Assembly: GCA_034722955.1 (NCBI GenBank)
Contig: JAYEOM010000092.1
Span: 1 to 11,496, forward strand
DNA length: 11,496 nt
Source: Campylobacterota bacterium
GTDB lineage: Bacteria; Campylobacterota; Campylobacteria; Campylobacterales; Sulfurovaceae
Reading direction: 5' to 3'
This document shows, in pieces, positions 3,001-6,000 of this stretch; position 1 is the stretch's first letter; each line of letters starts with the position of its first letter. Made by a program: the position numbers.

Positions 3001-6000
3001 ACTCAAAATACTTGCCGAAATAGGGATTATTTTGCTTCTGTTTGAAGTAGGATTAGAGACGGACTTTGAGCGACTCAAAGATGCTGGGGTCAAATCCTTT
3101 ATCGTTGCTATCGCAGGGGTTGTTTTCCCATTCTCTTTGGGGTTTATTGTCTCCTATTTTCTCTTTGATCTCTCTACAAATATCTCGCTGTTTATTGGTG
3201 GGACGATGACAGCTACAAGTATAGGTATCACGCTGAGAGTATTGAGAGATATTAGTATGGAGAAGACCAATATAGCCCAGATAGTCATCGGTGCAGCGGT
3301 TATTGATGATATTATTGGGATTATTTTACTGGTATTTATTTACGATTTTTCAACCACTGATAATATGAGCTACCAGCATACCATAGAGGTAGCTGGTATG
3401 ATATTTGCATTTCTCATTTTTGCACCTCTATTAGCCAAAATATTATCTTATTTTATCTTCAAATACCATGCTCAAAGCAGGCTGCCTGGCTATATGCCTA
3501 CGATTATTATCTCGTTGATTTTGTTTTTTGCCTATCTATCACACCATATTGGTGCTCCTGCAATTTTAGGTTCTTTTGTCGCAGGTGTTGCTCTTTCGCG
3601 ACGCTTCTTTTTGCCTTTTGGTTTGATGTTGCGTAAAAATAAAGATCTTATCCATGAAGTACAGTCAAGCATGGCTCCCATCATCCAAATTTTCACTCCT
3701 ATATTTTTTGTTATGGTCGGACTCTCGATGGATTTGAGTGTGATTGACTTTAGCTCCGCAACCTTTTGGATAATGAGTAGTGTATTTATCTTTTTAGGCT
3801 TCATCAGTAAGTTTATAGGAGCATTTTTTATCTTCCAGCACTCTTTGAGAAATAATGCGATGATAGGCATATCGATGATACCTAGAGGTGAAGTGGGACT
3901 TATCTTTGCTGAGATAGGACGAGTCAATGGTGTGTTACCAAATGATATCTATGCGATACTAATCTTTGTAATCATCATCACAACCGTTGTGCCACCGTTT
4001 TTATTGAAGAGATATTTTAAGTTTGAATGTGTAGGGTAGAGAATCTAGTTAGAGTCTCAAGCTTTGATATCATATTGCAGTTTTGGCTAGTCCTGCAAAC
4101 GATTGCCTTGTCTATGAGGTACCTCTCGACATAAATCGATCATCCTTAAGGGATTGTGTCACAGTATTTGGATATAATGCGTCTCATTTTCTATATTTCT
4201 AGATGAAAAAATATCTGTAAAGGAGTAACCTAATGCCAAAAATGAAGAGCGTAAAAGGCGCTGTGAAGCGTTTCAAAGTTAAAAAAAGCGGCAAGATCAA
4301 AAGAGGAACGGCTTATAGAAGTCACATCCTGACCAAAGTTGATGGTAAGCACCATAGACAAATGAGATCACCAAAGCATGTTGATGCTGCGGACGCGAAA
4401 AACATCAAAGAGATGATCAACTAATCATCTCGCCATCTATTCCCCCAAAAGGGGCAAGTTCAAACAGAGATAATGTTTGACACCTAATATAAACCAGCTT
4501 CAGCAGTTGACCCACACGATTAGTCGTATTGCGACATGCGAAGTTCGGTACAGGGTAAAGGAAAACCATGAGAGTAAAAACAGGTGTAGTCAGAAGACGA
4601 CGACACAAAAAACTACTAAAACAAGCCAGAGGATTCTACAGCGGTAGAAGAAAACATTTTAGAAAAGCAAAAGAGCAGCTTGAGAGATCACTGGTATATG
4701 CCTACAGAGATAGAAGACAGAAAAAAAGAGACTTTAGAAAACTATGGATCATCAGGATCAATGCAGCAGCAAGGCTCAACGATATGAACTACTCAACATT
4801 TATGTATGGTCTCAAACTTGCCAATATAGAACTTGACAGAAAAATTTTAGCAGATATGGCTATGAATGCTCCTGAAAGTTTCACGAAAATAGCAGAGGCT
4901 TCTAAAGCAGCTATAGTAAAATAATATTTATCTATCTATAATTTTGAGGAGCAGACCTGCTCCTCAACCCTCTATGACCACTATCCCCTTTGTGTTTCAC
5001 CACCATAACTTATGATACCATATTGAAGATTGCTTATCTGTTTGAATCCTAGTGATTTCATCGCATGTTGGACTTGGAAACTTCGACTTCCTGTATGACA
5101 GTAGACAACTATTGGAGTATGCTTCTTATCTGCAATATCTTCAACTTTTGCATAGAACTGTGAAGTGGGAACAAGGATATCGGTACCTACGATATGACCC
5201 ATCTGATACTCCATATACTCACGCACATCGACAAGCTCGAATGCTATCATGCCTAGCTCTCGTGCTTCGATCAATGCCTCTAGCTCATCTCCATCTAGTT
5301 GTTCTTGTTTTAGAAGTATCTCTGCTTGCTCATGGGTCAAGCCTTTGGAGTGCTGATGGACAACCTCTTCGATCTCATCTTTGATCCTTTGTGACTCTGC
5401 ATACTCAGAAGTACAGAAGATACCACAATGACAAAGCCCATCTTCGGGGATCTCCTTTTCCAGAGCTGGCTTGCAGGGGCATATACGGTTATCTGCCTCT
5501 CTCCTCTCCTCTTTTGTCTCTCCGATCACCATAAAACATGGGCAGAACCTCTTGCCATACATCAAGCGATTGCGTGCCAATCCCATAATCACACCCTCAT
5601 TGACCTCTTCATTGGGATTTTGTACAAGATTGAACTGTTTGTTAACTTTGTCTACAAAAACTTGTGTCTTATCCATCTCTGCTAAAAACTCAGGAGAGTT
5701 CATATCTATCTGTTGCATTACTTTACCTCTTTCGTATTGTTTAACTCATTGCTATTGAGAGATTTGGCAAAAGCATCAAACTCTTTTGCAAGCCCCTCCA
5801 TCTTTTTGCCCCACTTGTCAAAAAATGTTTTACTCTCATTGAGATCGATACTCACTGTATCATTAGTGACCTCTATCCCCGCAGATTGCATCATAGTGAC
5901 ATTTCCGCTTTTAATCTCCTTGTCAACACCATCAAGGTTTTTTTTGACTTGACCCAAAAACTCTTTTGCTTTATTAGTATCTATGATCAATTTACCCTCT

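Follow-up and report, generated by a model that had tools for sequence, protein, structure and literature searches.

The fusion of a ferredoxin:thioredoxin reductase (FTR) catalytic domain to a rhodanese with an active-site cysteine is real and widespread in the order Campylobacterales. We assign a probability of roughly 50% to the reading, drawn from sequence, that this protein is a soluble and constitutive persulfide reductase that is driven by ferredoxin and either controls sulfane sulfur or supplies sulfide, which would make it the Fe-S counterpart of the CoADR-rhodanese and Npsr enzymes. The gene analyzed is located on the minus strand at positions 4981..5718 of the window, i.e., the whole stretch of 11,496 nucleotides inspected (contig JAYEOM010000092.1 of the Sulfurovaceae assembly GCA_034722955.1). 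It encodes 245 amino acids, as established from the open reading frame, the Pfam domains, and an AF2 model. Its ATG start overlaps the stop of the upstream gene, and a GAGG sequence is found just 5' of it. PF02943 (residues 15-120; E = 2e-34; 118.2 bits versus a cut-off of 22) and PF00581 (residues 144-235; E = 1.4e-14), both over the cut-off, are the sole Pfam domains in the protein. The FTR catalytic domain (residues 15-120; 5359..5676, minus strand) was delimited by Pfam, ortholog alignment, and structural matches; a linker helix (residues 104-126; 5341..5409, minus strand), defined by the AF2 model and the ortholog alignment, leads to the rhodanese domain (4984..5337, minus strand), which is based on Pfam, ortholog alignment, and fold matches. 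The latter belongs to a distinct subfamily with an N-terminal helical extension and a PTS motif. The translation contains the FTR motifs C59PC61, C80PC82, and C96HC98 as well as the rhodanese loop C207HTGSRS, so that the initial annotation, which had described an FTR chain with intact CPC, CPC, and CHC motifs fused to a cysteine-loop rhodanese, was borne out. By homology to the plant and cyanobacterial FTRs, we assume that C59, C80, C82, and C96 bind a [4Fe-4S] cluster and that C61 and C98 form the redox disulfide. With a rhodanese fold and the catalytic C207 in first position of a six-residue loop (C207HTGSR), the C-terminal domain has the hallmarks of a catalytic rhodanese.

The active sites are conserved to a high degree. 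Among 85 non-redundant fused orthologs (44-92% identical), 84 retained all ten motif positions, the exception having CRC in place of CHC; the initial annotation had given 9 of 10 orthologs. The seven catalytic cysteines were invariant in this set, as were G210, R212, and S213 next to C207, whereas H97 was present in 84 sequences. A regular-expression check detected the motifs in 245 of 250 stored homologous proteins. The loop C-x-x-G-x-R-S occurred in 85/85 orthologs and is of the CX4R type, unlike the seven-residue CX5R loop of the Cdc25/Acr2 phosphatase and arsenate reductase branch. The linker frequently contained an H-x-H-S-[RK]-G motif, with H121 in 67/85 and H123 in 75/85 orthologs. We also noted a fusion variant with an additional 70-aa helical tail at the C-terminus (P0123 and P0431-P0433); two of these four proteins carry CFC or CYC-like changes in the third motif.

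The AF2 model of the fusion is confident for each domain (mean pLDDT, 93.5) and less so overall (pTM, 0.64), with its lowest-confidence hinge in the linker; the relative position of the two domains is therefore not fixed by the model. A complex prediction with the domains as separate chains plus a 4Fe-4S cluster reached a score of 0.01 (mark, 0.32), which carries no weight in either direction. The FTR domain matched the structures 7pwe (Z, 10.9; rmsd, 2.0; 92 residues aligned) and 1dj7 (Z, 10.6; rmsd, 2.5; 89 residues aligned), and the rhodanese domain matched 2kl3 (Z, 14.8) and GlpE (1gn0; Z, 14.4). In the solved structures each domain thus matched its own family, and no chain with both was found.

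The comparison with known proteins places the two modules next to several characterized families. The fold and the CPC/CPC/CHC motifs are common to the FTR catalytic chain (1dj7, 7bzk), from which the fusion differs by its C-terminal rhodanese, a conserved N-terminal extension, and the sequence CPCF at the first motif; in addition, the FTR variable subunit (PF02941) gave no match in this 99.97% complete genome, with Synechococcus as a positive control. The selenoprotein FtrB (double selenoprotein; NF041072) does not apply, with 58.5 bits versus 160 and no in-frame stop. On the rhodanese side, the fold and the six-residue cysteine loop are shared with the single-domain sulfurtransferases GlpE, PspE, and TSTD1, whereas the domain studied here falls into a separate subfamily, has a helical extension at its N-terminus, and is joined to a putative reductase.

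By sequence, the FTR domain is closest to 4tpu (E = 2e-6), the ferredoxin:disulfide reductase (FDR) of Methanosarcina acetivorans, and to 7pwe (E = 5e-7), a glutaredoxin-FDR fusion of Desulfotalea psychrophila. Both combine an FTR-like core with a second module, which is rubredoxin or glutaredoxin, and have CYC as third motif, whereas the protein studied here has CHC and a rhodanese; it thus lacks both marks of the Methanosarcina-type FDR, the CYC motif and the C-terminal rubredoxin. The name 'Rubredoxin' that sources give to some homologs is a mis-transfer. These fusions to redox modules are the model for an explanation in which the rhodanese cysteine does not carry sulfane sulfur and acts instead as a redox relay, forming a mixed disulfide with a target (an oxidized protein thiol or a selenium compound) that the FTR center resolves. 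The housekeeping neighborhoods described below would fit such a relay, as would a second cysteine after the loop (C216) in 25/85 orthologs and another at position 132 in 24/85. However, most orthologs, including the present protein, do not have these extra cysteines, and six-residue loops are of the sulfurtransferase type, rhodaneses carrying sulfur as a cysteine persulfide (PMC9163753). We consider this relay unlikely.

We surveyed 151 genomes of the order Campylobacterales and found the FTR domain in 102 of them, one marginal match (G048) having been dropped. An intact fusion was present in 78 genomes, comprising 77 full-length matches and a fused gene with an insertion (G039); with one further, frameshifted fusion (G066), 79 fusion genomes were counted, and 23 genomes contained FTR without fusion. 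The initial estimate of full-length fusions in 29 of 60 genomes of the order agrees with this prevalence (77/151). The frameshift in G066 (locus L114) lies within the first CPC motif and reflects either a pseudogene or an assembly error. The rhodanese subfamily is sharply bounded (E < 1e-25, the next matches being at 1e-16) and occurred in 99/151 genomes. FTR and subfamily rhodanese, fused or separate, were found together in 92 genomes, FTR alone in 10, the rhodanese alone in 7, and neither in 42; these are bare counts, related genomes not being independent. A solo subfamily rhodanese was present in 13 of the 23 genomes with unfused FTR, two of which have a divergent FTR type. Six of the 10 FTR-only genomes belong to one genus and are near-complete assemblies, and the FTR-only and rhodanese-only genomes indicate that each domain can persist alone. 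Neither domain was detected in families f10, f11, f25, and f26, and a draw across the phylum gave 0/46 for f26 and 0/43 for f11, which appear to be host-associated families.

The closest named records to the fusion are from Sulfurovaceae, and a search of 1.84 billion representatives returned only about five full-length clusters, in accordance with a tight family. One cluster in the Atlas shares this architecture and has Bacteroidota as the most frequent phylum among its 7 labelled members; a second look-up of homologs gave only Campylobacterota or unclassified names and did not bear out this membership. Domain trees, which were quick, based on short alignments with few resolved forks, and calculated without the Sulfurovum-rich loci L031-L110, suggest that solo FTRs arose more than once and do not prove an ancestral fusion.

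The genomic context is dominated by housekeeping and lineage-specific genes. Across 90 diverse loci, the neighbors included argG-rplI-hslVU, gatC/dapE, glnB/amtB, and pcm/pckA, and no conserved sulfur-metabolism neighbor was found. The modules also pair as adjacent genes, namely, FTR followed by fusion, FTR followed by rhodanese, fusion followed by rhodanese, and rhodanese followed by fusion, and this recurs in several gene orders. Operons of a solo FTR, the fusion, a 96-aa gene, and a gene of 110-130 aa were observed at loci L111-L117, L147, and L149; the latter two genes, which had no Pfam match, are possible partners, and the tandem arrangement of solo FTR and fusion may encode a heteromeric form. 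In the window, the upstream gene whose stop overlaps the fusion start is lipoprotein-like (5718..6248, minus strand) and adjoins the fusion in close relatives only. Further upstream on the same strand, at 6351-7436 (minus strand), is an mrp/apbC Fe-S carrier gene, which we rejected as conserved context since only this genome among 170 loci, many of them short, has the link. Between rplT and the fusion gene, which converge, lies an inverted repeat at 4944..4967 (fold, -17.6 kcal/mol; z, -3.15) that is a possible terminator with no T-run; it was not called in the terminator scan, and the promoter/terminator scan was at chance level. At positions 211-1597, the window also harbors a HigB-like toxin gene (PF05015) and an antitoxin gene that joins an HTH to an IrrE/Peptidase_M78 domain.

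The second, split copy on contig C139 that the initial annotation had listed was recovered as two open reading frames separated by 26 bp. Identified by tblastn, they encode an FTR of 114 aa (12432-12776, plus strand; 56% identical) and a rhodanese of 115 aa (12803-13150, plus strand; about 40-42% identical). The rhodanese loop reads CRTDFRS; it is without the Gly found at the fourth position in most of 17 solo rhodaneses, so the split copy may be altered. Downstream of the pair come dapE, a gene resembling thioredoxin, and, at a distance of about 1.7 kb, a Psr-like cluster (C139 14872-21966) with genes for an Fe-S protein, NrfD, a molybdopterin oxidoreductase, TorD, and a further Fe-S protein; in the syntenic region of Sulfurovum indicum, psrA1 is named in the cluster (PMC10045233). 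This linkage, in a lineage that cycles sulfur, raises the possibility that the protein carries out part of sulfur respiration or disproportionation in the cytoplasm, with the neighboring polysulfide-reductase-like cluster as its supplier. We regard this as very improbable, because the Psr-like linkage was seen in only two of the solo-FTR loci examined (L139 and L150), and the fusion does not track the Sqr tested with a single partial query for one Sqr type: 31/79 fusion genomes were without it, and 18 Sqr genomes were without FTR.

Published expression data for Sulfurovum also stand against a respiratory role. In S. indicum, gatC is RS08480 and dapE is RS08465, and the two tags between them, which by synteny would be the FTR and rhodanese genes, were in no DE list of the available part of PMC10045233, in which PF02943 occurs 0 times; the fused gene had no certain counterpart in these lists. 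For strain MH2-6, the accessible supplement of PMC13609358 includes peg.484, the ortholog of the solo rhodanese, yet none of its DE sheets does. The comparisons in both DE sets are limited to sulfur and nitrate conditions, and low power may explain why the genes are missing from them. Peg.1502 of the MH2-6 supplement, treated in that paper as a rhodanese-like sulfurtransferase, is given in the paper's own table with the sequence of a thioredoxin (WCGPC). The gene contexts, the Sqr distribution, and the DE lists give no support to a role in sulfur respiration.

Another explanation is that the protein is an ordinary ferredoxin:thioredoxin reductase that backs the NADPH-dependent enzyme TrxB when ferredoxin is abundant, with the rhodanese as tethered client or substitute for the variable subunit and no coupled chemistry between the two domains. 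It draws on the retention of the plant-type CHC motif, the presence of two WCGPC thioredoxins in this genome, the variable subunit not being found, the occurrence of FTR-only genomes, and the proposal that bacterial FTRC serves thioredoxin (PMC9025218, citing Balsera 2013). FTR converts one-electron ferredoxin input into a dithiol (PMC9025218), and single-domain rhodaneses are known thioredoxin partners that release H2S when thioredoxins reduce them (PMC11763069). However, an invariant C207 and G-x-R-S would be needless in a passive cover, solved FTR and FDR structures have CPCR where the fusion has CPCF, and TrxB was found in 148/151 genomes, so FTR is not needed as sole thioredoxin reductant. 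The version based on rTCA regulation fails, since 17/79 fusion genomes were without ATP citrate lyase (ACL) and 18 ACL genomes were without FTR; this idea for bacterial FTR homologs does not fit the distribution observed here. We therefore judge the thioredoxin-reductase explanation to be rather unlikely. Nonetheless, of the initial proposal of a ferredoxin-driven persulfide or sulfurtransfer reductase 'rather than a thioredoxin reductase', only the first part fits the anatomy; the second is unproven, given the plant-type CHC, the two thioredoxins, the rhodanese-thioredoxin partnerships, the ten FTR genomes without subfamily rhodanese, and the unfixed domain positions; transfer may be direct or pass through a thioredoxin relay. 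Taken together, the tests of TrxB, ACL, Sqr, and the DE lists point to a constitutive role.

What the sequences contain is an intact FTR-type center together with a cysteine rhodanese, the two being fused or inherited jointly, and this anatomy fits a ferredoxin-fed reductase paired with a catalytic sulfurtransferase, in view of the near-invariant active sites, the co-occurrence of the domains when unfused, and the presence of TrxB in nearly all genomes. For the persulfide reductase that we favor, C207 would take up sulfane sulfur as a persulfide; candidate sources are a cysteine desulfurase, persulfides on proteins, thiosulfate, and polysulfide. Ferredoxin, of which this genome encodes two small ones (C1:93304-93579 and C118:14719-15024), would send two single electrons via the [4Fe-4S] cluster, so that the disulfide between C61 and C98 opens, and the resulting dithiol would reduce the persulfide and set HS- free. 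This last step could be direct, in one subunit or across two, or could run via a soluble thioredoxin. The net reaction would be R-SSH + 2 Fd(red) -> R-SH + HS-. Its likely job would be to keep sulfane sulfur low or to provide biosynthetic sulfide, not energy conservation, in cells mostly without glutathione; GshB was not found in this genome, and a strong GshB match was present in only 10/79 fusion genomes. Against this reading stand the 10 FTR-only and 7 rhodanese-only genomes, the 18 Sqr genomes without FTR, the lack of a conserved sulfur-metabolism neighbor, and the unfixed domain orientation.

The CoADR-rhodanese, Npsr, and CoA persulfide reductase (CoAPR) enzymes (3icr, 3nt6, 8a56) likewise combine a disulfide reductase with a C-terminal catalytic rhodanese, an arrangement that forms a persulfide reductase (PMC9405070), and their net reaction is the one proposed here. 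They depend on FAD, on NAD(P)H, and on CoA, whereas the fusion, which has no FAD/NAD(P)H pyridine-nucleotide disulfide reductase domain, has an Fe-S thiol center and would use ferredoxin. The two cysteines of CoAPR are 27 A apart and the CoA arm is needed (PMC9405070), so direct contact between the FTR and rhodanese sites is not a given. The bolder proposal that the Fe-S/disulfide center reduces the rhodanese persulfide directly, in a self-contained, flavin-free, and thioredoxin-free enzyme that is ancestral in most free-living Campylobacterales and replaces glutathione-based persulfide control, is advanced as a tentative possibility.

A second FTR lineage in the order (L171:4235-4882 in G040 and L172:4164-4784 in G100) is fused to a TusA/SirA-like domain, Cys-less and at the C-terminal position that matches the rhodanese. 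The resemblance to TusA is weak (Pfam E = 0.0096, under the cut-off; Foldseek 3hz7 E = 0.021, TM 0.59 over the target). Among its 227 homologs, the named ones are from Sulfurimonas and Sulfurospirillum, and the AF2 model (pTM, 0.84) suggests tightly packed domains. By analogy, the TusA-like fold may be taken as a weak, suggestive sign in favor of the persulfide reading.

In public sources, homologs bear the names 'ferredoxin-thioredoxin reductase catalytic subunit/rhodanese-related sulfurtransferase', 'sulfurtransferase', or the erroneous 'Rubredoxin', so the two-domain architecture is already known to automatic pipelines. Both domains are known, and FTR-like cores fused to other modules are already solved (4tpu, 7pwe). 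The literature searched contained no functional account of an FTR-rhodanese protein, and FTR surveys such as Balsera 2013 may list the architecture; the available parts of PMC2398784, PMC7278568, PMC6262447, and PMC13188914 do not mention the fusion.

The fusion is a small soluble target of 27 kDa for the role of bacterial FTR homologs outside photosynthesis. To our knowledge, going by the sources available in part, FTR chemistry has been characterized only for disulfides of thioredoxin-like proteins, and a persulfide substrate, if true, would extend it beyond these and provide the primary producers that dominate vents and sulfidic sediments with a ferredoxin-linked route for sulfane sulfur. 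Direct reduction of the rhodanese persulfide, if true, would add a third type of chemistry to the biological reduction of sulfane sulfur. Many free-living relatives of Campylobacter carry this protein, in which, as its motifs suggest, ferredoxin electrons probably serve to release protein-bound sulfur as sulfide.
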